Position numbers and translations under genes: made by a program
Shown here: in pieces, positions 22,601-60,790 of the stretch
Position numbering within the stretch: position 1 is the first letter of the stretch
Layout: every line of letters begins with the position of its first letter
Assembly: GCA_001940855.1 (NCBI GenBank)
Contig: MSGS01000026.1
Span: 33,754 to 97,753 of the forward strand
Reading direction: 5' to 3'
DNA: 64,000 bases
DNA from: Christensenellaceae bacterium Phil1
Lineage (GTDB): Bacteria > Bacillota > Clostridia > Christensenellales > CAG-138
Notes under the pieces: model-generated
Seen by the model: the letters and a program-made list of their open reading frames with translations, nothing else
The model's database searches: none
What the model was told of the DNA's origin: nothing

Positions 22601-22626
22601 TTAGATGGGTGTTCATAAAGCAGTCA

Positions 22627-22656
22627 ACGGAGCGTATCGACAAAGATACGCTCCGT
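22627..22656. other. Perfect 12-bp stem hairpin
   Basis: acggagcgtatc-gacaaa-gatacgctccgt followed by TTCTC. It sits between repeat copy A and the tandem repeats. Confidence 0.5.
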
Positions 22657-22660
22657 TTCT

Positions 22661-22863
22661 CATGCCAACATATTAGTAAAAAGGTGCAGCCCCTTGGCTC
22701 TCCCCTTGGGAGAGCTGTCACCGCAATGTGACTGAGAGGGCGTTGCAGCCTTTTTTGAATCTCATGCCAACATACTATGTAAAGGGGTTCAGCCCCGTGG
22801 TTCTCCCCTTGGGAGAGCTGTCACCGCAGGTGACTGAGAGGGGGTTGCGGCCTTTTTTGAATG
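22661..22863. repeat. Tandem direct repeat, 2 units of about 101 nt, each with two hairpins and a T-run
   Basis: Unit 1 is 22661..22762 and unit 2 is 22763..22863. Both start with catgccaaca. Both contain gctctccc-ctt-gggagagc, then gtcac-loop-gtgac, then ctgagaggg...gcagcc/gcggcc TTTTTT. Confidence 0.75.
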
Positions 22864-22904
22864 ATAATATCATTGGGTGTTGTCTTTGGTATGGTTATTG
22901 TTTG

Positions 22905-22955
22905 CCCTCTCCGTCCTCGCTACGCTCGGCCACCTCTCCCAAGGGGAGAGGCAAG
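22905..22955. repeat. Related short structured element (cctctcc-caa-ggggagagg hairpin)
   Basis: ccctctccgtcctcgctacgctcggccacctctcccaaggggagaggcaaggg shares the ctcccc/ggggag hairpin theme with the tandem units. Confidence 0.35.
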
Positions 22956-23022
22956 GGATGATAGCGCGGTACACTGAAAGGTGTACATAAGCGCGTCCTT
23001 TATCGGTTCGGCAAATCGGGCA

Positions 23023-43146: not shown

Positions 43147-43344
43147 ATGATCGAAAAGACCATGACAATCGAACAGATACTGCGCACGGATGCGGGGCTG
43201 GCGGACATACTGCTTTCAAGCGGCATGCATTGCCTTGGCTGCGTAATGGCGAGCGGCGAAAATTTGGAGCAGGCCTGCGCGGTGCACGGCATAGATGCGG
43301 ACAAACTGACTAAGCAGCTCAATGACTACCTTGCCAACAAATAA
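43147..43344 (+). CDS. DUF1858 domain protein (hybrid-cluster-protein-associated redox disulfide family)
   Basis: MTIEQILRTDAGLADILLSSGMHCLGCVMASGENLEQACAVHGIDADKL is typical of the family. SD GGAGG lies 10 nt upstream. Confidence 0.75.
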   Translation: MIEKTMTIEQILRTDAGLADILLSSGMHCLGCVMASGENLEQACAVHGIDADKLTKQLNDYLANK

Positions 43345-43831
43345 TTCCCGCGCGGTGCTGTTAAAGCTTGTGAGGGGGGCTGCGGTTGCAGCCCTTTATG
43401 CATTGTTCACGCTTGCAATCGCGCCCATAAGCAGCGGGCTTATGCAGCTTAGGCTGTCCGAAGGGCTGTGCGTGCTGCCGTATTTCGCGCCGGAGATGGC
43501 AATTGGCCTTTTCGTGGGCTGTGCGGCGGCGAATATGCTCACCGGGGCAATGTGGTTCGATGTTGTGTTCGGCAGCCTTGCAACGCTCATCGCCGCGCTT
43601 ATCACGGCATATATGGGCAAAAGGGGCATGAGCAAATGGCTTGCGCCGCTGCCGGCGGTTGTTATGAACGCGCTTGTTGTGGGCGCGGTGCTGTGCTACG
43701 GCTATCAGGTAGGTGTAAGCTATCCGGTCTGCGCGCTGTATGTAGGCGCGGGGGAGGCCATAAGCTGCTACGCGGTGGGCATGCCGCTTTTGGCCGCATT
43801 AAATCCGATAAAAAAACGCCTGTTCGGCTGA
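43322..43831 (+). CDS. queT: QueT-type queuosine-precursor ECF transporter S component
   Basis: 169 aa with 5 to 6 TM segments. AALYALFTLAIAPISSGLMQLRLSEGLCVLPYF resembles the QueT family. The start is uncertain: it overlaps the upstream gene by 23 nt and has no clear SD. Confidence 0.7.
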   Translation: MTTLPTNNSRAVLLKLVRGAAVAALYALFTLAIAPISSGLMQLRLSEGLCVLPYFAPEMAIGLFVGCAAANMLTGAMWFDVVFGSLATLIAALITAYMGKRGMSKWLAPLPAVVMNALVVGAVLCYGYQVGVSYPVCALYVGAGEAISCYAVGMPLLAALNPIKKRLFG

Positions 43832-43897
43832 GAAAAAGAAGGATTGGACTGCACTCTTTCTGCCCAAATTTAAGATAAAATTGCCTAAATTTTGCAC

Positions 43898-43926
43898 TTG
43901 CGCTGCACTTTTGGGCGGGTTATAAT
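43898..43926 (+). promoter_or_regulatory. Candidate promoter upstream of the phage-type late block
   Basis: TTGCGC (43898..43903), a 17-nt spacer, then TATAAT (43921..43926). Confidence 0.4.
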
Positions 43927-43983
43927 GTTTACGATGAAAGAATTGTCAAGGGGCGGCCCCCAAGGCGGTTCTTTTTTTATGCG

Positions 43984-44010
43984 AGCGTCCGGAAACGGGC
44001 GCTTTTTTTG
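43984..44010 (+). terminator. Intrinsic terminator inside the leader of the late block
   Basis: agcgtccg-gaaa-cgggcgct (one G.U pair) followed by TTTTTTT, 44 nt upstream of the ATG at 44054. A second T7 run lies at about 43971..43977. Confidence 0.6.
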
Positions 44011-44053
44011 TACCCAAAAACGTTTATACCCGAAACGGGAGAAAGGAGAAACC

Positions 44054-44665
44054 ATGAACGAAAAAACCACAAAGCCCGCCGGACGGGAGGCGGTGAACGC
44101 GGCGCTCAGGCAGCTCATGAGCGAAGGCGTGGAGGTGAACACGGGCGGGGAAACGGAAGGAGAGGAGGAGATATCCCTTGCCGAAAAGGTGCGCGAAGCA
44201 TACGAGGGCAGCATAGAGTACAGGCTCGGCTGCCAGATAATGGACGGGCTTACGCAGGGCTATGCGCTGACAAGCGACGATGCGGAGGCCATGCTGACCG
44301 GCGAATACGCGCCCAAAAGCAGCGAAATTGTGGGCGCAAGGGCGGCGGAAACGCTAAAGCGCATGGAAAAGGAAGGCCGGCTTGCAAGGGGCATAGAAAG
44401 CTACCTTGCGGACGGCGAATTTCTGCAAATGCTGCGCCAAATGCCCGCGGAGCTTGCAATAAGGATAAAGGAGGCGGAATGGGCCGCGGAGGGCGCGAAG
44501 AACGCCCGCAGCGACGGCGAGCGCGACGCGATAGAGAAGCTAAAGGCCCGCCAGGCGCTGCCCACGCCCATGAGGACAATTATACCCGTGAGCGCGGAGC
44601 CGGACTTTTCAACCATGAGCAGTGAGGAATTTGCCCGCTTCAAGCGGCGCAGGTTCGGACAGTGA
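44054..44665 (+). CDS. Putative phage scaffolding protein
   Basis: 203 aa, acidic and helical. It lies directly upstream of the major capsid gene. SD GAAAGGAG lies upstream of the ATG at 44054. The track ORF starting at 43892 includes leader sequence. Confidence 0.5.
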   Translation: MNEKTTKPAGREAVNAALRQLMSEGVEVNTGGETEGEEEISLAEKVREAYEGSIEYRLGCQIMDGLTQGYALTSDDAEAMLTGEYAPKSSEIVGARAAETLKRMEKEGRLARGIESYLADGEFLQMLRQMPAELAIRIKEAEWAAEGAKNARSDGERDAIEKLKARQALPTPMRTIIPVSAEPDFSTMSSEEFARFKRRRFGQ

Positions 44666-44707
44666 ACAAAACAACAATAATGATGAAAAAGAAAGGAATA
44701 ACAAATT

Positions 44708-45892
44708 ATGAACACCACTAATTCAACCCTTAATACTACCGCCCTTAATAAGGACTATTACGACAGGCAGCTGCTTGAGGGCGCAAAGACCCGCTTTGTA
44801 TTCACCAAATACGGGCAGAAGCGCACCGTGCCGCTGAACAACGGCAAGCACGTTGAATTCCGCAGATGGAATCTTTTTGACGTGGATGACAATATGTGCG
44901 CCCTGGAGGAGGGCAAAACGCCCGAAGGCCAGTCCCTTTCCCAAAGCAGCGTGGAGGCCACCCTTGCGCAGTACGGCGCATATGTTGAGGTGAGCGACAT
45001 GCTGGAGGACACCGCGTACGATAAGGTTTTGAGCGACAGCGCGGAGCTTCTTGGCGAGCAGATAGGCACCGTTATGGAATGGGTAACGAGGGACGCCGTA
45101 TGCGGCGGCACAAACGTGCAGTACGTTGGCGGGAAAACCGCAAGGAACCAGATTGATTCGACCGATACCCTTACCGTGAACGAAATACGCAAGGCCGTGC
45201 GCACGCTTAAAAAGGCCAAGGCGCGTCCCTTTGCGGACGACGGGCGCAGGCCGCATTATATCTGCATTTGCTCTCCGGACGCGGTATATGATTTGCAGAA
45301 CGACAGCCTGTGGCAGGACGTTTCCAAATACAGCGGCGCGGAAAACATATATTCCGGCGAAATAGGCAGGCTGTTCGGCGTTGTTTTCGTTGAATCGACA
45401 GAGGCGAAGGTGGTTCGCCAGGCTATGCTGACAAAGCTTGTTTCCCACGAAGCCGGAAGCGACACCTTCACCGTTGCCGAAATGACCGACAGGGCTGCGG
45501 AAACGCTCATGCGCCTGAAAAAGGTGACCGTGGGCAGCGCAACATATAACCTGAAAAGCATTGATAAGGCGGCAAAGAGCATAACCCTTACGGTAAGCCT
45601 TTCAAACGCGCTTGCAAAGGACTCGATAGTATATACCACCGAGGCCGGCAAGCTGGACGCAAATAAGAAGGCGGCGGACGTACACATGAGCGTTATATTC
45701 GGCAGGGACGCATACGGGGTTATAGACCTTGAAAACGGCGCGCTTGAAAGCATAGTTAAGCCGCGCGGCAGCGCGGGCGCGGACGATCCGCTCGATCAGC
45801 GCGCAACGGTGGGCGCGAAGGTGACGGGCTTTGCGGCGGTTATATTGAACGAGCTTTGGATAGTGCGCATAGAGCACGGCGCGAGCGCCTAA
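44708..45892 (+). CDS. Major capsid protein, N4-gp56 family (HK97 fold)
   Basis: 394 aa. DYYDRQLLEGAKTRFVFTKYGQKRTVPLNNGKHVEFRRW...ATLAQYGAYVEVSD...ICSPDAVYDLQND matches what I recall of the TIGR04387-type capsid family. Confidence 0.8.
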   Translation: MNTTNSTLNTTALNKDYYDRQLLEGAKTRFVFTKYGQKRTVPLNNGKHVEFRRWNLFDVDDNMCALEEGKTPEGQSLSQSSVEATLAQYGAYVEVSDMLEDTAYDKVLSDSAELLGEQIGTVMEWVTRDAVCGGTNVQYVGGKTARNQIDSTDTLTVNEIRKAVRTLKKAKARPFADDGRRPHYICICSPDAVYDLQNDSLWQDVSKYSGAENIYSGEIGRLFGVVFVESTEAKVVRQAMLTKLVSHEAGSDTFTVAEMTDRAAETLMRLKKVTVGSATYNLKSIDKAAKSITLTVSLSNALAKDSIVYTTEAGKLDANKKAADVHMSVIFGRDAYGVIDLENGALESIVKPRGSAGADDPLDQRATVGAKVTGFAAVILNELWIVRIEHGASA

Positions 45893-45915
45893 GCAAAAAG
45901 AAAGGAGCAAGCAGG

Positions 45916-46167
45916 ATGAACGCGGCGGAGGATATGCGCATTGACGCGCAGGAGCAGACGGAGATAATGCTGCCGCTTTTCCCGGGGGTAGAGGACTACC
46001 CCTGGGAGGGCGGGGTGAACGGCACGTTTTACAGGATAAAGCGCGGAATAAAGGTGAAGGTGCCCAAAAACGTGGCGGAGCTGATAGAGGAAAGCGAAAT
46101 GCTGCGCGAACAGAGCAGGAACGAAACACTTGCATACCGGCGCGGCATGGGCAAAAGGCTTGGGTAA
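45916..46167 (+). CDS. Hypothetical phage protein
   Basis: 83 aa with SD AAAGGAG upstream. It sits between the capsid and adaptor-like genes. Confidence 0.5.
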   Translation: MNAAEDMRIDAQEQTEIMLPLFPGVEDYPWEGGVNGTFYRIKRGIKVKVPKNVAELIEESEMLREQSRNETLAYRRGMGKRLG

Positions 46168-46181
46168 AGGAGGGATAACAA

Positions 46182-46727
46182 ATGACGCTGAACGACATTA
46201 TAGTCAGCGCGCTTATACAGACAGGCCGCGGGCACGACGCGCAGACCATGGACACCTGGCGGGACAAGCTGACAGGCTTTGCAAACGACGCGATAATGGA
46301 CCTTGCGCTTACGGTGCGCCCGATACGCACGGAGAAGGCGGCGATAGCAAACGGCCGCATAGACTGCAACGCGCTTGAGCGCGAATGCATAAGGGTGATG
46401 AGCATACGCAAATGCGGGCGCGAGGCGGACTTTTACGCGGACGAACGCAGCGCGGGCGTTGTAAGGGTGAACGCGGACGACGGCGAGGCGGAGATAACAT
46501 ACCGCTTTATGCCGCGTATGCTCACGAACGCCACGGACGAACCGGAGCTGAACGAAGCGTGCCAGCAGCTTATAGTGACCTATGTTGTTGCGCGGGAGAG
46601 AGCATCGGGCGAAGTGAACACGCAGCGCGGCGGCAACATATATTTTCAGCTTTACGAAACCGGCAAGCAGAAGCTTAGGCCGCACATGGGCGGCAGGGAC
46701 GCGTATATGCTGAAGAACAGGTGGTGA
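46182..46727 (+). CDS. Putative head-to-tail adaptor (P22 gp4-position protein)
   Basis: 181 aa with SD AAAGGAGGG. Assigned from position and size only (P22 gp4 is 166 aa). Confidence 0.35.
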   Translation: MTLNDIIVSALIQTGRGHDAQTMDTWRDKLTGFANDAIMDLALTVRPIRTEKAAIANGRIDCNALERECIRVMSIRKCGREADFYADERSAGVVRVNADDGEAEITYRFMPRMLTNATDEPELNEACQQLIVTYVVARERASGEVNTQRGGNIYFQLYETGKQKLRPHMGGRDAYMLKNRW

Positions 46728-46731
46728 AGGC

Positions 46732-48162
46732 ATGGCAAGGGCAATATACAGAATAAACGAGTTCATAGGCATTGACCAATCCCGCGACGAAAACGCGCTT
46801 AAAAGCGCAATGAGTCCGGACGCCTGCAACATGGACACGGCGGGCGGAAATTTGAGCGTGTGCCGCGGCTGCGTAAGGCATATTGAAGCGCCCATACCCG
46901 GCACGGGGGATATTCACGCCATACGCATATTTTCAACGCCGGACGGGGAAATGTTCATAGCCGCGGCGGGGGAGAGCATATATGCATACAAAAACGGCGC
47001 GTGGCAGGAAATATATTCCTTCACCGCCCCGCTTGAAAAGCACCGCTTCGATTTTGCTCAGGCGCAGATAAATTCAAAGGACCATTTGATAATAGCCACC
47101 GGCGAGCGGCAGCTTATAAAGTTCGATGGGGACGAGGCTAAGCCCTTCGGCAGCGCGGAAGGGGTATCCGACAAAAAGGCCGGATATTTGGCAATGTATA
47201 GAAGCCGCCTTTTTGCCGCGGGAGATCCGGAAAACCCGAACAGGCTTTATTGGTCCCAGCTTCCCGGCGGGGGCAGGAGCATAGAAAACTGGGGCAGCGT
47301 TGAGGCAAGCCCGAATGTTGAAGGCGGGCATACGGAGGTGGGCAGCATGAAGAGCGACCCGATAGTCGGCCTTTCCGCGCTGAGCAACCAGCTTATCATA
47401 TTCAAGCGGGACAGCATATATCGTCTGTTGGGCGATAAGCCCGGCAATTTCATTGTTGAGGAGGTTGAGGGGCGGACGGAAACGGCGGTGTACAGCGCGA
47501 TAGTAAAGCGGGCGGGGAGCCTGTTCTTTCTTACGCAGGGCGGGCTATGCATTTTCAACGGCGTGAATGCCCAGCTTATGGGCGACGCGCGGCGCATACA
47601 AAACGCTCTCATGTCCGCATCCACCGCCGCAAGCCGCGGGGCCATATGCCGCGATAAGCTGTATTTTACGATAGGCGAAGGCGGCGGACATGCCAATGCC
47701 GTAATAGAATACGACATTATGCGCGCCGCGTATATGATAAGGCGTGGCTTTAAGGCATACGATATCTGCTCAAGCGGCGGCACGCTTTATATTGCCAACG
47801 AAAACCGCCGCATATGCCGTCTGGACGAGGGTGAAACATACGACGGCGCGGAGATAAACGCATACTGGAACACACCAGTGTGCGATCTTTACGACAAGGG
47901 CAGCATAAAGAGCATGAAGCGGCTGTATCTTCGCGGCAGGAGCGACGCGCGCGACAGCGCCGCGCTTATAGACATGCACATAGGCCAAAACGCCGCCGCG
48001 TACAGGACGCTTTTGCCAAAGGATGAAAGAACGGTGCTTGAGGTGCCGCTGAAAAACGAAGGCAGGACCTTTTCTATGCGGATATATAACGAAGCCGGCG
48101 GGCGGTTCGCGCTTAAAAGCGGAATGGAGCTGGAATTTGAAACGCGAAGGAGGACGGAATAA
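46732..48162 (+). CDS. Putative tail hub/nozzle protein (P22 gp10-position; beta-propeller-like repeat pattern)
   Basis: 476 aa. Strand-turn motifs recur (IYAYKNGAWQEIY, LIIATGERQLIKFDG, RLFAAGDPENPNRLYWSQ, LIIFKRDSIYRLLGD, LFFLTQGGLCIFNG, TLYIANENRRICRLDEG). The size is close to P22 gp10 (472 aa). Confidence 0.4.
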   Translation: MARAIYRINEFIGIDQSRDENALKSAMSPDACNMDTAGGNLSVCRGCVRHIEAPIPGTGDIHAIRIFSTPDGEMFIAAAGESIYAYKNGAWQEIYSFTAPLEKHRFDFAQAQINSKDHLIIATGERQLIKFDGDEAKPFGSAEGVSDKKAGYLAMYRSRLFAAGDPENPNRLYWSQLPGGGRSIENWGSVEASPNVEGGHTEVGSMKSDPIVGLSALSNQLIIFKRDSIYRLLGDKPGNFIVEEVEGRTETAVYSAIVKRAGSLFFLTQGGLCIFNGVNAQLMGDARRIQNALMSASTAASRGAICRDKLYFTIGEGGGHANAVIEYDIMRAAYMIRRGFKAYDICSSGGTLYIANENRRICRLDEGETYDGAEINAYWNTPVCDLYDKGSIKSMKRLYLRGRSDARDSAALIDMHIGQNAAAYRTLLPKDERTVLEVPLKNEGRTFSMRIYNEAGGRFALKSGMELEFETRRRTE

Positions 48163-48339
48163 ATGGCGATGGACATGCGGGCGCTGTACACCATTGCATT
48201 AAGCGCCGTAAAGGAAAGCCCCACGGCCGAGGACGACATGAAGGCCAACGAAAACTGCTTAAACCAGAACTTTATAATACTTACGCAGAAGATAGAGGAG
48301 CTTGAGGCGCGGCTGAGGGCGCTTGAAAGCGGAAACTGA
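48163..48339 (+). CDS. Small coiled-coil phage protein (58 aa; below the ORF-track length cut-off)
   Basis: The ATG at 48163 directly abuts the upstream stop at 48160..48162. SD GGAGG lies 9 nt upstream. Sequence: MAMDMRALYTIALSAVKESPTAEDDMKANENCLNQNFIILTQKIEELEARLRALESGN*. Confidence 0.45.
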   Translation: MAMDMRALYTIALSAVKESPTAEDDMKANENCLNQNFIILTQKIEELEARLRALESGN

Positions 48340-48358
48340 CAAAGGAGGAAAAATAAAC

Positions 48359-49261
48359 ATGGCAAGCTATTACCTGAAAGGATACACCACGCCGGACGGC
48401 GTGAACAGCCGCGCGGACGTGCGCGAATGGCAGAACAAGCTGGGCGTAAAGGCGGACGGCATATGGGGCCCGAACACGCAGGCCGCATACGAACGATATG
48501 CAAACGCAAGCTCAATGAGCAAATTTCAGGAGTATTACAACACTATTATGGGCGCGCTGAACGTGCCGAGCATATCGGTAAGCGTGCCGAGCAAGGCGGA
48601 GCTGAAGGAGGACATTTCAAGCTACCTAAGGCCGGGCGTTGATCTTGCAATATCCAAGCGCCGCGCCGCGGGCGAGACCGCAAAGGCAGAGCTTGATGCG
48701 GACGCGGTGAGCAGGGGCATGGGAGCATCGACCTATGTATCGAGTATGAAGGAGCGCGAGGACGACGACGTGCAGAGCGACATTTCAATTATGGAGGCGC
48801 AGTACACCGCGACTCTTGCCGAGCGCATTGCCGCCGCGCTTGAAAAATATCAATCCATGAGCCTTCAGGCGCAGCTGCAGAACGCGCAGTACGCATATAA
48901 CGCGCAGACCACGGCGATGAATTTGGCCTCCCAATGGTTCAATTCATATATGAACAACGCGGCGCGCGCCGTTAAGGGCAGCGGCGGTAGAAGCGGCAAA
49001 AGCGGCACGGCAAGTAAAAATATGTCCACGCTGGACTATGTGCGCTTCGTAAGCGGGCTTAGCGCGCCGGAAAGATCCATGCTGTATAACTCCGGTGCGA
49101 GCGAATGGGTAATGATGCGCACGGAGCTTGAGGATGCGCTCGGCAAGGACGGCTACCGCACCGTGCGAAGCGCGTTCCCGATACTGGGGAGCGCGGGCGT
49201 GAAGAGCATATCCAACAAAAATTACGATAAGGCGAGGGATACATGGCGATGGGCAAGGTGA
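48359..49261 (+). CDS. Phage structural protein with an N-terminal peptidoglycan-binding (PG_binding_1-like) motif
   Basis: 300 aa. VREWQNKLGVKADGIWGPNTQAAYERY resembles the motif in the sleB product of this same window. The rest is helical and Q/A-rich. SD AAAGGAGG. Confidence 0.5.
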   Translation: MASYYLKGYTTPDGVNSRADVREWQNKLGVKADGIWGPNTQAAYERYANASSMSKFQEYYNTIMGALNVPSISVSVPSKAELKEDISSYLRPGVDLAISKRRAAGETAKAELDADAVSRGMGASTYVSSMKEREDDDVQSDISIMEAQYTATLAERIAAALEKYQSMSLQAQLQNAQYAYNAQTTAMNLASQWFNSYMNNAARAVKGSGGRSGKSGTASKNMSTLDYVRFVSGLSAPERSMLYNSGASEWVMMRTELEDALGKDGYRTVRSAFPILGSAGVKSISNKNYDKARDTWRWAR

Positions 49262-49974
49262 CGAAAAGCTTTAAGGTAACGCTGGACATTGCAAGGAGCA
49301 TTTCAAACAGGGAGTTCAGCGTGGTTGAAGGGGACACGGGCAACACGCTGAGCATAACGCTCAACGACGACGGCAAGGCCGTTGACCTGACCGGATGCAG
49401 GGTGCTTGCGCTGTTTTCAAAATCGAACGGCGAAACCGTGTGCCAGGACAGCGCGGAGCAAAACGGCGGCGTGACAATAGGCGGGCAGAGCATGAACGAA
49501 ATAAGCATAGAGCTTTTTGCCTCCTCCGTTGCGCCGGGAATGGTGGAAAGCGAAATACAGGTGTATTCCGGAAGCGACTTAACAACGCTTGTAACATCGG
49601 CGCAGTTCAATTTCAAATGCAGGCGCGGCATATTGAACGGCGATACGCTTGCCGCCACAAGGGAATATCCGCTGCTTACGGCGCTGATAAAGGAAACGCA
49701 GGCCATGCAGGCAAGGCTTGAAGCAATGCTGAGCCAAAACGAGGCCATAGCCGCGGCGGAAAAAGAGAGGGCAAGCGCGGAGGCGATACGCAAGCAGGCG
49801 GAAAAGCAGCGCGTGAGCAGCGAAACGCTCAGGAACAACGCCGAAGCCGGCCGAAGCACGGCGAAAAGCGGCAGAAGGAGCGCGGAGACGGCGCGCGTGA
49901 ACGAATTCAATGCAATAAAGGCCCAAGCGGAGGCGCTTATTGCCGAGCTTGAGGCGGCGAAGGGAGGGGCATGA
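49243..49974 (+). CDS. BppU_N-domain protein with a C-terminal coiled coil (tail fibre/needle-like)
   Basis: FSVVEGDTGNTLSITLNDDGKAVDLTGCRVLALFSKSNGETV...ESEIQVY is typical of the BppU N-domain. The C-terminal roughly 90 aa form an Ala/Glu/Arg-rich coiled coil. Confidence 0.65.
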   Translation: MAMGKVTKSFKVTLDIARSISNREFSVVEGDTGNTLSITLNDDGKAVDLTGCRVLALFSKSNGETVCQDSAEQNGGVTIGGQSMNEISIELFASSVAPGMVESEIQVYSGSDLTTLVTSAQFNFKCRRGILNGDTLAATREYPLLTALIKETQAMQARLEAMLSQNEAIAAAEKERASAEAIRKQAEKQRVSSETLRNNAEAGRSTAKSGRRSAETARVNEFNAIKAQAEALIAELEAAKGGA

Positions 49975-50732
49975 GCATGACGCGAAGGGAAGAATTCACC
50001 GCATGGATATGCGCGCAGACTGGCAGCGCATACGTTTGGGGAGCGCAGGGGCATAAGGTGCGGCGCGACGGAACGGTATATATGAACCAAAGAAAGGTGA
50101 GCGATAATTTCGAAAGCTGGGTAAGGCAAAGGGAGAACGGCGAAGAAAACGCGCGGCGCGCCATAAGCGGCATAAGGCAAAGGCTCACGGAGGGCGCAAG
50201 CGAGGTGACGTGCTATGATTGCAGCGGGCTTATAATGGCCTACATACGGGACATAAAGGGCTACACTACGCGGGATCTGAGCGCACGGGGACTTTTTGCC
50301 ATTGCCAAGGAAAAGGCGAAGGAAGGGCTTATACCGGGCGATCTTGTGTTCCGCCACAACGGGGAAAAGATAACCCACGTGGGCGTATATATCGGCAGCG
50401 GATACGCCGTGGACGCGCGGGGCAGGGACAGCGGAGTTATAAAGCAAAGGCTGGACGCGGCCGGGTGGAACCGGTTCGCATCGCTTGAAATGCTGAACGA
50501 ACAGGGCATAAGCACTGCCGACGCGGACATGCCGGCCTACGGCCGCTGCACGGGCAAAAGCGTATATGTGCGCAGCGGCGCGGGCGGAACATACCCGATT
50601 CTTGCAACCGCGCACAGGGGGGATAGGCTCATAGCATTGCCGGAGCAAAACGGCTGGCACAGGATTGCCATATGCTGCAAGGGAAAGCTGCTCACGGGAT
50701 ACATGAGCGCAAAATATATAGAATATGCATAA
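49971..50732 (+). CDS. Endolysin: NlpC/P60 peptidase plus SH3 domain
   Basis: Catalytic Cys context YDCSGLIMAY and His context ITHVGVYIGSGYAVDA. C-terminal SH3-like KSVYVRSGAGGTYPILATAHRGDRLIALPEQNGWHRI. The ATG at 49977 is an alternative start. Confidence 0.85.
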   Translation: MSMTRREEFTAWICAQTGSAYVWGAQGHKVRRDGTVYMNQRKVSDNFESWVRQRENGEENARRAISGIRQRLTEGASEVTCYDCSGLIMAYIRDIKGYTTRDLSARGLFAIAKEKAKEGLIPGDLVFRHNGEKITHVGVYIGSGYAVDARGRDSGVIKQRLDAAGWNRFASLEMLNEQGISTADADMPAYGRCTGKSVYVRSGAGGTYPILATAHRGDRLIALPEQNGWHRIAICCKGKLLTGYMSAKYIEYA

Positions 50733-50746
50733 AGGAGAAAGAAAAA

Positions 50747-51169
50747 ATGAGGAACGAAATGGGCGATAAAATAGCAATGTGGATAAAAAGCGCGGCTGCG
50801 GCAATAGGCGGCGCGGCGGCGTACCTTTGGGGGCCGTGGGATGCGCTGATAACGGCGCTGATAGCGCTTGTAGCGATAGACTACGTTACGGGCGTTATAT
50901 GCGCGGCGGTGAACGGGAAGCTTAACAGCAGCGTTGGCTTCAAGGGGCTTATGAAAAAGGCGCTTATATTCGCGCTGGTAGCCGTTGCCGGCATTGCGGA
51001 CAGGGTGATACCCGCGGCGAATCAGGCCATACGCGCGGCGGTGATATTGTTTTACACGGCGAACGAGGCCATAAGCATAATGGAAAACGCGGCGGAGCTG
51101 GGCCTGCCCGTGCCAAAGCGGCTCAAGGGAATGCTGACCAAGGCGCAGAACGAGAGCGAGGCCGAATAA
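50747..51169 (+). CDS. Phage holin (holin_4_1 / TcdE-like family)
   Basis: 140 aa with three TM segments. IALVAIDYVTGVICAAVNGKLNSSVGFKGLMKKALIF...ANEAISIMENAAELGLPVP is the family hallmark. Confidence 0.85.
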   Translation: MRNEMGDKIAMWIKSAAAAIGGAAAYLWGPWDALITALIALVAIDYVTGVICAAVNGKLNSSVGFKGLMKKALIFALVAVAGIADRVIPAANQAIRAAVILFYTANEAISIMENAAELGLPVPKRLKGMLTKAQNESEAE

Positions 51170-51237
51170 AACGGCCTTGCCCGCCGGGCGAATGCGGATT
51201 ATAATTAAGCATATCTATCCCGAAAAAGGAGAAGGAC

Positions 51238-52161
51238 ATGCTGCCGCAGGACATAAAAAAGCAATACGACACAAGCCGCGCCCGCGCCGAGGCAGAGGCC
51301 GCGCAGCGCAAGCACGCCGCATATACCGCCATGCCGAGACTGAGGCAGATTGACGAGGAGATAAGGCAGGTATCCTTCAACAGGGGGCTGGAGCTGATAA
51401 AGGCCGAAAACCGCGACCAAGTAAGAAGGGATACGGCGGAAAAGCTTGCCGCGCTTTACGCGGAGCGGGCGCGGATGCTGAGCGAGCGGGGCATGAGCAC
51501 GGACGATCTTTTGCCGCGCTACGCCTGCGAAAAATGCTCCGACACGGGCTACCTTGAAAACGGGGAGCTTTGCCCGTGCGCACGGCTGAAGCTGGCAGGG
51601 CGGAAATATTCATCCTCCGGCATAAGCGAAAACGCGGGCTTTGACCGCTTTAACGAAAACATATTCAAAGACCCCGAGCAATTAAAGCGCACACGCCGCG
51701 CGGCGGAGATCTGCGCCCAATACGCCGAAAACCTTGAAATAGGCGGGGCTAAAGGGCTGCTGCTCATGGGCGAAACGGGCCTCGGCAAAACCTTCCTTAT
51801 GGACAGCATAGGGCGCGAGGCGATACGGCGCGGCTACAGCGTGAAAAAATACACGGCATATAATTTGATAGACGCGGCGCTGCGCGCAGTCCGCCGGCAC
51901 GAGGCCGGGCCGGAGCTGACGGGGGCGGAGCTTTTATTGCTGGACGATCTCGGCACGGAGCCGATGATACCGGGCGTTACGATAGAAACGCTTTTTGCCG
52001 CCATAAACGAGCGGCAGTTTTCCGGCAAGGCCACGGTAATAGCCACAAACCTTACAAAGAACGAGCTTTTCACCCAATACGGCGAGCGCATATTCTCCCG
52101 CCTGTTCGCCTCCCGCGAGTACGCGGCGATAACGCTAAGGGGGAAGGATTTGAGGATGTAG
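51238..52161 (+). CDS. DnaC/DnaI-like AAA+ helicase-loader family protein
   Basis: Zn-ribbon-like CEKCSDTGYLENGELCPC, Walker A GETGLGKTF, Walker B LLLLDDLG. It has its own promoter-like TTGCCC-N17-TATAAT (about 51186..51208) and SD AAAGGAG. Confidence 0.8.
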   Translation: MLPQDIKKQYDTSRARAEAEAAQRKHAAYTAMPRLRQIDEEIRQVSFNRGLELIKAENRDQVRRDTAEKLAALYAERARMLSERGMSTDDLLPRYACEKCSDTGYLENGELCPCARLKLAGRKYSSSGISENAGFDRFNENIFKDPEQLKRTRRAAEICAQYAENLEIGGAKGLLLMGETGLGKTFLMDSIGREAIRRGYSVKKYTAYNLIDAALRAVRRHEAGPELTGAELLLLDDLGTEPMIPGVTIETLFAAINERQFSGKATVIATNLTKNELFTQYGERIFSRLFASREYAAITLRGKDLRM

Positions 52162-52463
52162 AAACTCCCTCAGCTATGCCGAGGCTTTTGAGCAGATGGC
52201 ACAATCCGCAGGTGTAAAACGTTGCGGTGTAGCTGTTTATGTCGGGGCCTGGCGTGTAGTCAAATACCCAGGAATACGGATTGGGCGTGCGCGTGCGGCT
52301 CCTTTCAGCGCTCTGCTTTAGCTTGACCTGTGCATTAAAGGCCAATATATACCGCCGCAAGCATTGCGCCGCTGAGTATATTCACAAGGAATCTGTCGTC
52401 GCGGTCAAATTCGTTCACATTTGCCAGTATGCTTTGGTAGCGCGCTTTGCCGCACCTCCGCAT
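52162..52463 (-). pseudogene. Possible decayed gene remnant (two frames, truncated at the dnaC-like 3' end)
   Basis: A minus-strand 42-codon ORF at 52335..52463 (MRRCGKARYQSILANVNEFDRDDRFLVNILSGAMLAAVYIGL*) has no SD. A second frame downstream reads ...PYSWVFDYTPGPDINSYTATFYTCGLCHLLKSLGIAEGV and runs into the antisense of dnaC. The T-x-CG-x-C-x6-G-x-x-E pattern reminds me of ATC-hydrolase-like proteins, but that link is unverified. Confidence 0.3.
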
Positions 52464-52528
52464 CAAGTTAGCGTTATTTAACCGATGTCGTTATATAGCA
52501 GCTGCCGCGCAAATGCAAGCATATAAAT

Positions 52529-54586
52529 TTACAGAAGCTCCCTGTAATACAGCCCGCCGGTCCTGCGGAAATCGGGCGCCTGCCCGTTTACGAACATGTC
52601 GCATATGCGCATGGCTTCCTCCCGCGGCTCGGTGGTGAAGCGCAGCGTTATGAAATCCACGCCGCCGTAGGACTTATCCCCAACGTAAAGCGGCACGCTG
52701 TTGAGAAGCTCAGCATACTTTTTATTGCGGCAAAGCATTGTGAAACGCTCCTTCTTTTCGTCTATAAGCACGTTTTTGCCAGTGCAGCCGCCGCAGCCGT
52801 TTTCGCCTTTGGCGGGGCAGGCGCGCATTTTCATCAGCGCAAGATAGCCGTAGCCTATTATGCCGCGGCGCATATTGCCGCCAAGCCTGCGTATAAGGTT
52901 CATTTTCAGCTCAAACGAAACCGTGGCGTCCGCAAGGCCCAGCGATTCAAAAAGCGCAAGCGAGCGGCTGTTGAGTATGTTCAGCGAGCTGTCCCCATGC
53001 ACGTTAAAGCCCATCTCAAGCCCAAGCTGCACCGTGCCCAAATTATCCGCCGTAACGTGGCGAAGGCCGGCATTTTGCAGCCGAATAAGCTTTTCCCTAA
53101 GCCTTGGCATGTCCTCCGGGAAGCAGAGCGCGGGCAGCTCGGCAAAAAGCCTTTCGCCGAAGCGGTCTATCAGTTCCTCGTGCGCAATTATTTCATCCAC
53201 GCTGAGTATTATCGCCTCCGCATCGGGGTGATCGAACAGCTGCGCAAAGCTATCGAATCTCAGCCGCAGTGCTATTCTTTCCGCTGCGGTATGCGGGCAG
53301 GGCACGGGCAGGACCGCTTCCGTGTTTTTATATGGTTCCCTTGCGGTGCGCTGGGCGGCTATGTCTGCTATCGCTTCGCGGCGCATGGCCTTAAGCGCGG
53401 ACACGGGCAGTATTGCGTCAGCATCCATGTCAAATTCGGCATGGTCAATATAATACGGCGTGCCGCCGGTTTGGCCTATCGCCTTCAGCGCGGATGCTTC
53501 GGTAACGGGCTGCGTTTTGGCCCGCTCCGCCGCGGGGCCGTGTGCAGTTACGCTGAATGTGCCGTCCGTCATGAACAGCTCCGCTTCCTGCCCTATGTGT
53601 ACGCTTAATCTTGCGTAAAGCGGAACGGTCTGCGGTTCGGAAGCATAAAGCGCGGCAAGCTTGGGCAGCACGGCGGAGGCGGACATAACGTCCTCCTTGC
53701 TGCGTGCGCCGAACATATCCGCCGTGCGGCGGCCTGTGTAATATCCATCGGTAAAGCCGCTTCGCGAAAACACGGCCTTCAGCGTTTCTATATCCGGCTT
53801 TTCGCCGTTTTCTGCCTGACGGCAGGCGGTAACGGCGGCGGCTACGTATTCCGGCCGCTTCATGCGCCCCTCTATTTTCAGCGCGTGTATGCCGCTTCGC
53901 ATCAGCTCCTCCATATGGCCTATAAGGCACATATCCTTCAGCGAAAGCGCGCGTTCCTTTTTCCCCAGCCTGAAATTAAGCCTGCACGGCTGCGCGCAAA
54001 GGCCGCGGTTGCCGCTGCGCCCGCCGAGCATTGCGCTCAAATAGCACGCCCCGCTCATGCACATGCAGTGCGCCCCATGCACAAAGCATTCAATCTGTAT
54101 GGGCGACGCAGCCTGAATTGCACGTATCTCTTTTGCTGAAAGCTCCCGCGCAAGCACCACCTGCTTAAACCCGAGCTTATCGAGCAGCACCGCGCCTTCG
54201 GCATTATGCACGGTTGTCTGCGTGGAAGCATAAAGCGGCAGCTCGGGGTACCGCGCGCGGATAAGGGACATAACGCCCATGTCCTGCACTATCACCGCGT
54301 CCGCGTGCGCTTTGGCAATATCGTCAAGTTCAGCAGTCAATGCGGCGAACTCATCGTCCGTAACGAGCGTATTCAGCGTTACAAACACCTTCACCCCGCG
54401 CTCGTGGCACTGCGCAACGGCCTCGTCAAGGCTTGTTTCGGCAAAGTTTTCCGCATTGCGCCGCGCGTTGAAGCCCTTCGCCCCAAGGTACACCGCGTCC
54501 GCGCCCGTGCGCAGGGCTGCCTTTAGCTGCTCCGCCCCGCCAACCGGCGCCAGTATAAGCGGCCTTTCATATGCGTTCGTGTCCAT
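52529..54586 (-). CDS. U32-family peptidase
   Basis: 685 aa. U32 signature context ECFVHGAHCMCMSGACYLS, with a duplicated C-terminal domain. Confidence 0.9.
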   Translation of the reverse strand: MDTNAYERPLILAPVGGAEQLKAALRTGADAVYLGAKGFNARRNAENFAETSLDEAVAQCHERGVKVFVTLNTLVTDDEFAALTAELDDIAKAHADAVIVQDMGVMSLIRARYPELPLYASTQTTVHNAEGAVLLDKLGFKQVVLARELSAKEIRAIQAASPIQIECFVHGAHCMCMSGACYLSAMLGGRSGNRGLCAQPCRLNFRLGKKERALSLKDMCLIGHMEELMRSGIHALKIEGRMKRPEYVAAAVTACRQAENGEKPDIETLKAVFSRSGFTDGYYTGRRTADMFGARSKEDVMSASAVLPKLAALYASEPQTVPLYARLSVHIGQEAELFMTDGTFSVTAHGPAAERAKTQPVTEASALKAIGQTGGTPYYIDHAEFDMDADAILPVSALKAMRREAIADIAAQRTAREPYKNTEAVLPVPCPHTAAERIALRLRFDSFAQLFDHPDAEAIILSVDEIIAHEELIDRFGERLFAELPALCFPEDMPRLREKLIRLQNAGLRHVTADNLGTVQLGLEMGFNVHGDSSLNILNSRSLALFESLGLADATVSFELKMNLIRRLGGNMRRGIIGYGYLALMKMRACPAKGENGCGGCTGKNVLIDEKKERFTMLCRNKKYAELLNSVPLYVGDKSYGGVDFITLRFTTEPREEAMRICDMFVNGQAPDFRRTGGLYYRELL

Positions 54587-60638: not shown

Positions 60639-60790
60639 CGGGCTTACGCCCGCGGTGAAATTGCGCCCATGCGCAGTGAAATATTGCTTACGCAATGTAA
60701 AATATGGCTCCGCCATGTGAAATCCGCCTATCGGCGGGTGATCGTGGGAGAGTGTGAAGATGTGGGGACGCAGAGCGTCCCCTTGTTTAT
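60638..60790. repeat. Structured intergenic repeat: five tandem hairpin-GTGAAAT units plus a terminal GC hairpin (same family as 3509..3608)
   Basis: Units: gcgggc-ttac-gcccgc+ggtgaaat (60638..60661); tgcgc-ccat-gcgca+gtgaaat (60662..60682); attgc-ttac-gcaat+gtaaaat (60683..60703); atggc-tcc-gccat+gtgaaat (60704..60723); ccgcc-tatc-ggcgg+gtgatcg (60724..60744). The hairpin ggggacgc-aga-gcgtcccc (60764..60782) and TTGTTT follow. Confidence 0.65.

Follow-up and report, generated by a model that had tools for sequence, protein, structure and literature searches.

Gene transfer agents (GTAs) of the RcGTA type, found in Alphaproteobacteria, are domesticated phage structural gene clusters that are inherited vertically under purifying selection, with their lysis and accessory genes distributed over several loci. 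In the gut, GTA-like packaging has recently been reported as the commonest way by which bacterial DNA enters human-gut virus-like particles, and Borodovich et al. (Nat Commun 2026; PMC12946183), whose data include proteomics, showed that Faecalibacterium prausnitzii makes 40-nm particles in which approximately 9 kb of host DNA is carried. The packaged DNA is reported to be near-random host fragments, shorter than would be needed to include the genes of the agent. The genes for this agent, FpGTA, are divided between two operons separated by 125 kb. The first, FpGTA I, encodes small (TerS) and large (TerL) terminase subunits, a portal, a protein at the scaffold position, an N4-gp56 major capsid protein (MCP), a nozzle matched to PDB 8eap, and the TolA-like protein RCH50844.1, which is the third most abundant particle protein; FpGTA II begins with a BppU-like fibre and includes receptor-binding proteins, a holin and an endolysin (PMC12946183). 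GTA-like packaging was seen also in Oscillospiraceae and Christensenellaceae, although the genes were found only in Faecalibacterium and were explicitly not found in Gemmiger or Subdoligranulum (PMC12946183); a 2026 mouse study did not find such clusters in Oscillospiraceae. Here we describe a ten-gene block in Christensenellaceae bacterium Phil1, located in a 64,000-nucleotide stretch of contig MSGS01000026.1 (assembly GCA_001940855.1, positions 33,754 to 97,753 of the forward strand; hereafter the window), and we consider it probable that it serves as the operon for head, short tail and lysis in a podovirus-derived GTA of the FpGTA kind that is inherited vertically and divided over several loci.

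The block occupies window positions 44054–51169 and consists of ten intact open reading frames (ORFs) on the + strand, separated by 0–42 nt or overlapping slightly; the ORF analysis bears out an initial annotation that had described them as same-strand and undisrupted. The genes are as follows, each with its ratio of nonsynonymous to synonymous substitution rates (dN/dS; Nei-Gojobori estimates for the window against the related locus L023).

44054..44665, +, scaffold-like protein, 203 aa, acidic and helical, role assigned from position; dN/dS 0.18
44708..45892, +, MCP, 394 aa, N4-gp56 family, HK97 fold (TIGR04387, PF13252, phrog_1357); dN/dS 0.15
45916..46167, +, small conserved protein, 83 aa (phrog_15239); dN/dS 0.19
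46182..46727, +, head-to-tail adaptor of the SU10 / P22 gp4 type, portal-binding, 181 aa (PF24175); dN/dS 0.20
46732..48162, +, tail nozzle/hub, P22 gp10-type beta-propeller, 476 aa (predicted structure and Foldseek); dN/dS 0.10
48163..48339, +, small coiled-coil protein, 58 aa, position conserved; dN/dS 0.03
48359..49261, +, 300-aa protein with a PG_binding_1 N-terminus and an Ala/Gln-rich helical region (Pfam); dN/dS 0.14
49243..49974, +, BppU_N fibre/baseplate protein with a C-terminal coiled coil, 243 aa (PF10651); dN/dS 0.23
49977..50732, +, endolysin, NlpC/P60 endopeptidase with an SH3_3 wall-binding domain (Pfam, NCBIfam); dN/dS 0.18
50744..51169, +, holin, Phage_holin_4_1, TcdE type, 140 aa (PF05105, TIGR01593); dN/dS 0.35

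Family searches agree with the N4-gp56 MCP, PG_binding_1, BppU_N, NlpC/P60 plus SH3 lysin and TcdE-type holin assignments that had been proposed from the sequence. The MCP matches TIGR04387 with 245 bits (cut-off 60), PF13252, and phrog_1357 with an E-value of 1.5e-68, and the holin matches PF05105 with 138 bits and also TIGR01593. The 243-aa protein scores 26.5 against a threshold of 23.1 for BppU_N, and the N-terminus of the 300-aa protein 23.2 against a threshold of 23 for PG_binding_1. The 181-aa protein is barely over the gathering score for SU10_adaptor (PF24175; 28.3 bits against 27), and its orthologues also match this family, in L013 and L019–L022 at an unmarked level (related loci are referred to by L numbers throughout). 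For the 203-aa, 83-aa and 58-aa proteins, Pfam-A and NCBIfam contain no matching family, and the sole match of the 83-aa protein is to phrog_15239, a family without an assigned function. The 83-aa gene, which is called as 77 aa in some assemblies, keeps its position through much of the family, and a 77-aa member of the MCP cluster that could be taken for a truncated MCP is this small downstream gene, mis-clustered. The scaffold-like protein has 26–49% identity to the proteins encoded between the portal and MCP genes of complete clusters. Gene tables of the relatives examined contain a 58–70 aa gene at the position of the 58-aa gene, with sequence similarity detectable only in L023, L016, L014 and L094. 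The 300-aa gene is the last gene of complete clusters and is conserved there, and its product may act at the tail tip or in ejection. Other assemblies place the holin start at 50744 (140 aa) rather than 50672, and the lysin start at 49977 (251 aa).

The identity of the 476-aa protein emerges from structure prediction. A full-library search with this protein returned 879 clusters at 50% identity (E up to 0.001), and we modelled it with AlphaFold2 using a 59-sequence alignment that included 58 cluster representatives. This model has a pLDDT of 95.5 and a pTM of 0.93, compared with a pLDDT of only 38 for single-sequence prediction. Foldseek matches it to the tail of Pseudomonas phage Pa223 (E 1.2e-23, TM 0.81), to the Vibrio phage VP1 nozzle (E 8e-19) and to P22 gp10 (8eap_D, E 1.4e-16, TM 0.67; also 8u10 and 9jg6), with further matches to SU10, Sf6 gp8 and T7 gp12. 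PDB sequence searches with profiles of 16–20 sequences of the nozzle, adaptor and 300-aa families returned nothing useful; the deeper nozzle profile matches PDB nozzle chains by sequence with E-values of 1e-7 to 1e-10. As judged from the predicted model, the 476-aa protein is a gp10-type nozzle.

The initial annotation had also proposed that the sizes and order of these genes track those of P22. The order scaffold, coat, small ORF, adaptor, nozzle is indeed common to both, with P22 orf69 in the same position as the 83-aa gene, and the nozzle fold and the SU10-family adaptor lend this further support, but at sequence level neither P22 gp4 nor P22 gp10 is matched significantly in profile comparisons. 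The nozzle fold is shared among the P22, SU10 and Pa223 podoviruses, and the portals of complete relatives of the block match P22_portal and SU10_portal. Unlike P22, the block has no gp26-type needle and no counterparts of the ejection proteins gp7, gp20 and gp16; besides the BppU_N gene, the interval from nozzle to lysis genes contains only the 58-aa and 300-aa genes. The suggestion that the 243-aa protein is a gp26-like needle gives way to its Pfam assignment as a BppU_N fibre/baseplate protein, and this fibre, of a type typical of lactococcal siphoviruses, takes the place of the P22 tailspike.

The comparison with FpGTA is closer. The FpGTA capsid protein RCH50849.1 carries the same NCBI family name (N4-gp56) as the MCP of the block, and the two systems share a scaffold-position protein, an 8eap-type nozzle, a TolA-like or coiled-coil protein, a BppU-like fibre, a holin and an endolysin, with the genes of the block following the FpGTA gene order and RCH50844.1 at the position equivalent to the 300-aa protein. 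Both are without replication and integration genes, both are multi-locus, and both belong to gut Clostridia. They differ in where the division between loci falls: in FpGTA, TerS, TerL and portal are beside the head genes and the fibre-lysis genes are 125 kb away, whereas in the block the head-tail genes are fused to the fibre-lysis genes, and the packaging genes would be the part located elsewhere. The fibre module of the block also differs in being a single 243-aa protein, as does the endolysin in being of the NlpC/P60-SH3 type. In layout and protein set the block equals FpGTA I minus its packaging genes, joined to a minimal FpGTA II. RcGTA resembles the block in its domestication, vertical inheritance and multi-locus layout, but it is siphovirus-like and unrelated in sequence, and its main cluster keeps terminase and portal.

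The surroundings and composition of the block are those of the host chromosome. Upstream are spoIIR, sleB, ypeB, an MBL-fold gene, GH13, DUF1858 and QueT genes, the last three of which had been recognised as host neighbours at the outset, and downstream are a DnaC/IstB-like ATPase gene and then a U32 peptidase gene. Tetranucleotide correlations between the block and other window segments are 0.93–0.97, in agreement with the earlier judgement by eye that its composition is host-like. Neither the window nor 10 kb to either side contains an integrase, repressor or replication gene, and the 10 kb beyond each window end, recovered from same-species contigs, contain host genes only; the block is a phage-derived cluster without replication, integration or lysogeny genes, flanked by host genes. 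Phage satellites of the phage-inducible chromosomal island (PICI) or capsid-forming (cf-PICI) kind are not a match, with no integrase or replication/primase module found and a position that is fixed across species.

Conservation of the block is extensive. An identical MCP is indexed in 488 blocks of a public assembly collection, and in the ten of these places that are listed the ten genes are intact, with the same lengths and at the same locus, except that L008 has its 58-aa gene truncated and L007 has the scaffold gene called with a shorter start; there are no pseudogenes in these ten. Apparent disruptions of the scaffold gene in L232 are N-gaps. Two further species-level lineages carry the block at the same spoIIR...queT / dnaC-like locus: L023/L024, with an MCP 87% identical and approximately 84% nucleotide identity over the locus, and L025, with an MCP 76% identical and a contig that ends inside the nozzle gene. 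Between the window and L023, the ten genes have dN/dS values of 0.03–0.35 at synonymous divergences (dS) of 0.25–0.72 (about 0.5), and the eight upstream host genes together with the dnaC-like gene have dN/dS values of 0.06–0.29 at dS of 0.40–0.73. The adaptor and nozzle are as strongly conserved as the MCP (0.20 and 0.10 versus 0.15). Because the locus is fixed and dS, dN/dS and composition are all host-like, we conclude that the block has co-diverged with the chromosome under purifying selection, and this co-divergence has outlasted any loss or removal of the packaging genes by a long time. The pseudogenes, patchy distribution and relaxed selection of a decaying prophage are not seen. One of the initial proposals, that of a domesticated module under continued selection, is in this respect well founded, with every gene constrained and the locus the same in three species-level lineages.

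The block belongs to a large chromosomal family in Clostridia. We found more than 2,300 MCP homologues, and portal-seeded scans identified relatives in 209 species genomes and 213 metagenome stretches, the carriers being mostly Christensenellaceae, Oscillospiraceae and metagenome-assembled genomes (MAGs) of unclassified Clostridia. TerL, portal and MCP form one contiguous cluster in 106 of the 160 portal-bearing loci that we examined, and where the sequence allows the order is TerS, TerL, portal, scaffold, MCP, small gene, adaptor, nozzle, small gene and 300-aa gene, over approximately 8.5–9.7 kb. The flanks examined for such clusters, those of L013 and L019–L022, consist of host genes, with no integrase in view. 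In eight of the 160 loci (form C) the cluster begins at the portal with housekeeping host genes upstream, and in another class, also eight of 160, TerL and portal are present without a downstream capsid gene. Distant portal-less blocks adjoin OAD_beta in L014/L015 (MCP 63% identical; complete through the holin in L014) and in L016 (MCP 69% identical; followed up to the BppU_N gene, the limit of the available stretch). Fragmentation of the family cluster is evident in the form C loci, in an insert of about 6 kb in L016, and in the 125-kb division of FpGTA. The L016 insert (L016:11323–17117) is located between the MCP gene and the next small gene, with intact GTA genes on both sides, and encodes five unannotated proteins of 225–252 aa (three with faint InlK_D3 matches) and an ABC-F ATPase. 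One apparent example of a split system, L077 in the UMGS765 reference MAG, is instead a deletion variant of L137: a clean 4.45-kb deletion (L077:12157 versus L137:12135–16584) removes the MCP, adaptor and nozzle genes and the greater part of the 300-aa gene, and the clusters of L134 and L137, from the same species, are complete. Strains of the L077 type may be natural non-producers, or 'cheaters'.

The closest true viruses are 38–40 kb IMG/VR contigs (IMGVR_UViG_3300045988_*; L212–L218), with identities to the block of 55–57% for the MCP, 36% for the adaptor, 38% for the nozzle and 42–44% for BppU_N, the BppU_N relative following the nozzle gene. The MCPs of Bacillus Pagevirus and Paenibacillus phage API480 are 33–36% identical to that of the block. 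Unlike the block, all of these have genomes of full phage size, which encode a terminase and a portal. The gene order in L212–L218 is unusual, with a full-length TerL gene (product 59–65% identical to GTA TerL) separating the MCP gene from the adaptor gene, and a TerS-like ORF directly before the portal gene.

If the block is one part of a GTA, its portal and terminase should be encoded elsewhere, and a close relative provides an apparent example. A stand-alone locus containing TerL and portal, with a sigma-like regulator wherever the sequence upstream of TerL is available, exists in at least six species-level variants (L168, L170, L174, L193, L183 and L192); in the L183 type, a divergent gene for a 173-aa sigma-like regulator is followed by TerL, portal and then host genes. 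The L168 locus has a tetranucleotide correlation of 0.971 to L014, the highest among approximately 140 loci after the near-duplicate L015, and the two are reciprocal best matches; L168, L170 and L174 correlate with L014 at 0.95–0.97, and the codon usage of L014 correlates with that of L168, L170, L174 and L193 at 0.91–0.94. In addition, a 15-nt motif, AGAACAAWTGTACGA, which contains the palindrome ACAATTGT, is confined, within 2.78 Mb of sequence, to two settings: the intergenic region separating regulator and TerL in L168, L170 and L174, and the sequence just upstream of the L014 and L015 scaffold genes. Its positions are as follows.

L168:624-638 and 808-822, motif AGAACAAWTGTACGA
L170:5559 and 5756, same motif
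L174:8405 and 8591, same motif
L014, L015:9303-9317, - strand, same motif

This motif is a candidate operator that would tie the packaging locus to the L014 block. Because codon usage, tetranucleotide composition and the motif are shared, the portal-less operon appears to be paired with a co-regulated packaging locus in this close relative of the element, and the L168-type locus is likely to be the partner of the L014 block. A similarity in gene order between L168 and the window at 5.6–10.7 kb was discounted, as it reflects only a conserved V-type ATPase operon. The 173-aa regulator (L183:7747–8268, - strand) has a C-terminus like sigma-70 region 4 and matches phrog_36, phrog_248 and phrog_1740; homologues are present in L168, L170, L174 and L191, divergent from TerL wherever the upstream region is available. 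Stand-alone packaging loci with this regulator have no TerS gene. The regulator may be the activator of the system.

For the window species itself, we did not identify the packaging locus in portal homologue searches, cluster-member look-ups, or scans of species genomes, metagenomes and IMG/VR. Tblastn of the whole 64 kb with TerS, TerL and portal queries from the block's own family was empty even at E-values up to 10, and together with the flank extension this agrees with the initial annotation that the window lacks terminase, portal and integrase. The further proposal that packaging acts in trans finds a probable instance in the sister lineage, where the L014 block and the L168-type locus would work together, but a portal or terminase of the window species was not found in these searches. 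The L183-type TerL-portal loci were initially appealing as the partner, with a GC content of 0.56, a human gut origin and a 277-bp family of miniature inverted-repeat transposable elements (MITEs) in common with the window species. However, the L183-type locus is from a different organism, because its tetranucleotide correlation with the window is 0.81 and its relative synonymous codon usage (RSCU) correlation 0.74, and we rejected it. The leader of the block likewise shows no significant similarity to the region upstream of the L183 TerL by nhmmer (E 9.7) or shared k-mers.

The leader region upstream of the scaffold gene contains three features.

43898..43926, +, promoter-like site TTGCGC-17 nt-TATAAT, read from the sequence, with a putative function
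43936..43980, +, leader hairpin 1 with U-run, terminator-like (RNA fold)
43983..44011, +, leader hairpin 2 with U7, intrinsic-terminator-like, approximately 45 nt before the first start codon (scan)

The promoter-like site is below the -35 threshold of a simple scanner, and its -10 box and surroundings are conserved in L023 and L025, with TATACT at the equivalent place in L016. The segment 43930–44060 folds with -44.8 kcal/mol (z -2.6). Hairpin 1 is conserved in L023 and L025 and has an equivalent in L016; hairpin 2, with a 9-pair stem containing 6 G-C pairs, is nearly invariant in the window, L023, L025, L004 and L005, and in a scan of 43300–52600 it is the second-ranked terminator-like match and the best on the + strand. 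Some 45 nt follow hairpin 2, and then a GGAGA-type ribosome-binding site ahead of the scaffold gene. In L016 the upstream gene points away, and the hairpins therefore belong to the leader of the operon itself rather than to a terminator of the upstream gene. The arrangement suggests control by attenuation or antitermination. A 16-mer match to Christensenellaceae loci proved to be a ferredoxin promoter, and a search of IMG/VR with the leader gave no match.

A working model follows from these components. In a producing subpopulation, transcription would start at the promoter approximately 130 nt upstream and proceed through the two-hairpin leader; with two terminator-like hairpins in the way, expression would require read-through or antitermination. 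The scaffold protein and the N4-gp56 MCP would then assemble a small procapsid on a portal ring, and the large terminase would pack a headful of host DNA into it, both portal and terminase being supplied from another locus, as is supported for the sister lineage and presumed for the window genome. The adaptor would dock to the portal, the gp10-type nozzle would shut the channel, and the 58-aa protein, the PG-binding 300-aa protein and the BppU_N fibre would finish the short tail. Holin and NlpC/P60-SH3 endolysin would finally lyse the producer and free the particles.

Several observations weigh against this interpretation. Neither the window species nor L023 and L025, its closest relatives, yielded a portal or terminase, and among approximately 230 loci there is no TerL or portal with window-like codon usage (the best correlation is 0.76). 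Homology to FpGTA (RCH50844–RCH50852 and RCH48794–RCH48797) is argued from shared family names, fold matches and gene order, with no Faecalibacterium record among the matches of any homologue search. The two-terminator leader could equally mean that the operon is usually silent, and true deletion remnants do occur in the family, as L077 illustrates in comparison with L137. This last point, together with the absence of packaging genes from the window and 10 kb on each side, would suit an inert remnant, the residue of a prophage or GTA cluster from which the left end (TerS, TerL and portal) has gone and in which the other genes have yet to decay. Yet L023, at a dS of about 0.5 or more, and L025 retain the truncated layout at the same locus; all ten genes have dN/dS values in the range of host genes; the distant L016 (as far as BppU_N) and L014 (through the holin) keep a portal-less block; and the ten listed places are free of pseudogenes. 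We regard this explanation as largely refuted and very unlikely, and the recent deletion that the initial annotation had entertained is contradicted by the same findings.

A second alternative is a module exapted for some purpose other than DNA transfer, such as DNA-free particles, programmed lysis that releases DNA or cell contents, a bacteriocin-like particle, or a role linked to sporulation; such a module would need neither portal nor terminase. The lack of a detectable portal or terminase in the window lineage fits such a role, as do the fusion of lysis genes to structural genes and the location of spoIIR, sleB and ypeB, with functions in sporulation and germination, a few genes upstream in all three related lineages. 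Nonetheless, the adaptor, whose only known job is portal binding, and the nozzle are conserved as strongly as the MCP, the sister lineage retains an intact and apparently co-regulated TerL-portal locus, and in other lineages the block is beside OAD_beta rather than sporulation genes. We consider exaptation without DNA transfer unlikely; the specific idea of a portal-less shell, raised at the outset, finds no support, with portal-binding adaptor and nozzle both under purifying selection. Alternatively, the operon could behave as a helper-dependent 'reverse satellite' that borrows portal and terminase from an unrelated phage, whether resident or infecting. It does lack packaging genes of its own, and compatible portals circulate, since the 38–40 kb IMG/VR phages carry related MCP, adaptor, nozzle and BppU proteins, but integrase, replication module and att-like repeats are all missing, the fixed chromosomal position and divergence parallel to that of host genes are not the behaviour of a satellite, and selection would be relaxed if the operon relied on an intermittently present helper. 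We view such dependence as highly improbable. A composite of these ideas, in which the window lineage has no dedicated family portal or terminase, the operon borrows packaging from an unrelated phage or makes DNA-free particles, and the two-terminator leader gates expression, also seems unlikely to us. An FpGTA-like GTA divided among several loci is the explanation that we prefer.

The main interest of the block is that it points to a widespread and fragment-prone GTA family in gut Clostridia. More than 200 species, chiefly Christensenellaceae, Oscillospiraceae and unclassified Clostridia, carry FpGTA-like gene sets. These are often split into separate packaging, head-tail and fibre-lysis pieces, which explains why prophage and GTA finders may miss such loci; a fragment without portal or terminase need not be junk but can be an operon that is maintained and functional. 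These loci provide concrete candidate genes for unexplained signals of host-DNA packaging in the gut, and a very abundant uncultured species of gut Clostridia offers a place in which to test the GTA idea.

Some additional features of the region can be noted. In six of ten same-species contigs, although not in the window, a MITE-like element of 277–285 bp with terminal inverted repeats (ACCATCAGTTGATAAGAGCACACAAG...) is inserted between the leader hairpins, at a point corresponding to approximately window position 43981 (L005:8994–9270; also L004, L007, L008, L009 and L010). Two copies with 90–92% identity are present in the L183-type contigs. The aberrant left flank of L004 starts inside the MITE, and we therefore attribute it to a rearrangement or mis-assembly at the repeat; a short repeated element is also common to that flank (L004:5018–5438) and to window 22605–23016, with 77–87% identity. 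Upstream of the -10 box, window 43845–43912 contains four or five TGCRCT-like hexamers (TGCACT, TTGCCT, TGCACT, TGCGCT and TGCACT), and L025 has similar TGCGCAC and TTGCACA repeats; these hexamers may be regulator-binding sites.

The DnaC/IstB-like ATPase gene downstream (window 51238–52161, +; PRK06835 at 213.9 bits against a cut-off of 215, and phrog_50) always follows the holin gene in the window, L023 and L024 but is not found there in L014. The gene, which has a separate promoter-like site at 51177–51205, is probably a host gene, and read-through from the operon into it is possible because there is no + strand terminator after the holin gene. Farther downstream, at window 60653–60728 (+), a Gut-1 RNA (Rfam RF01706; 57.9 bits against a gathering score of 50) is located upstream of genes for a LacI-family regulator and a sugar ABC transporter.

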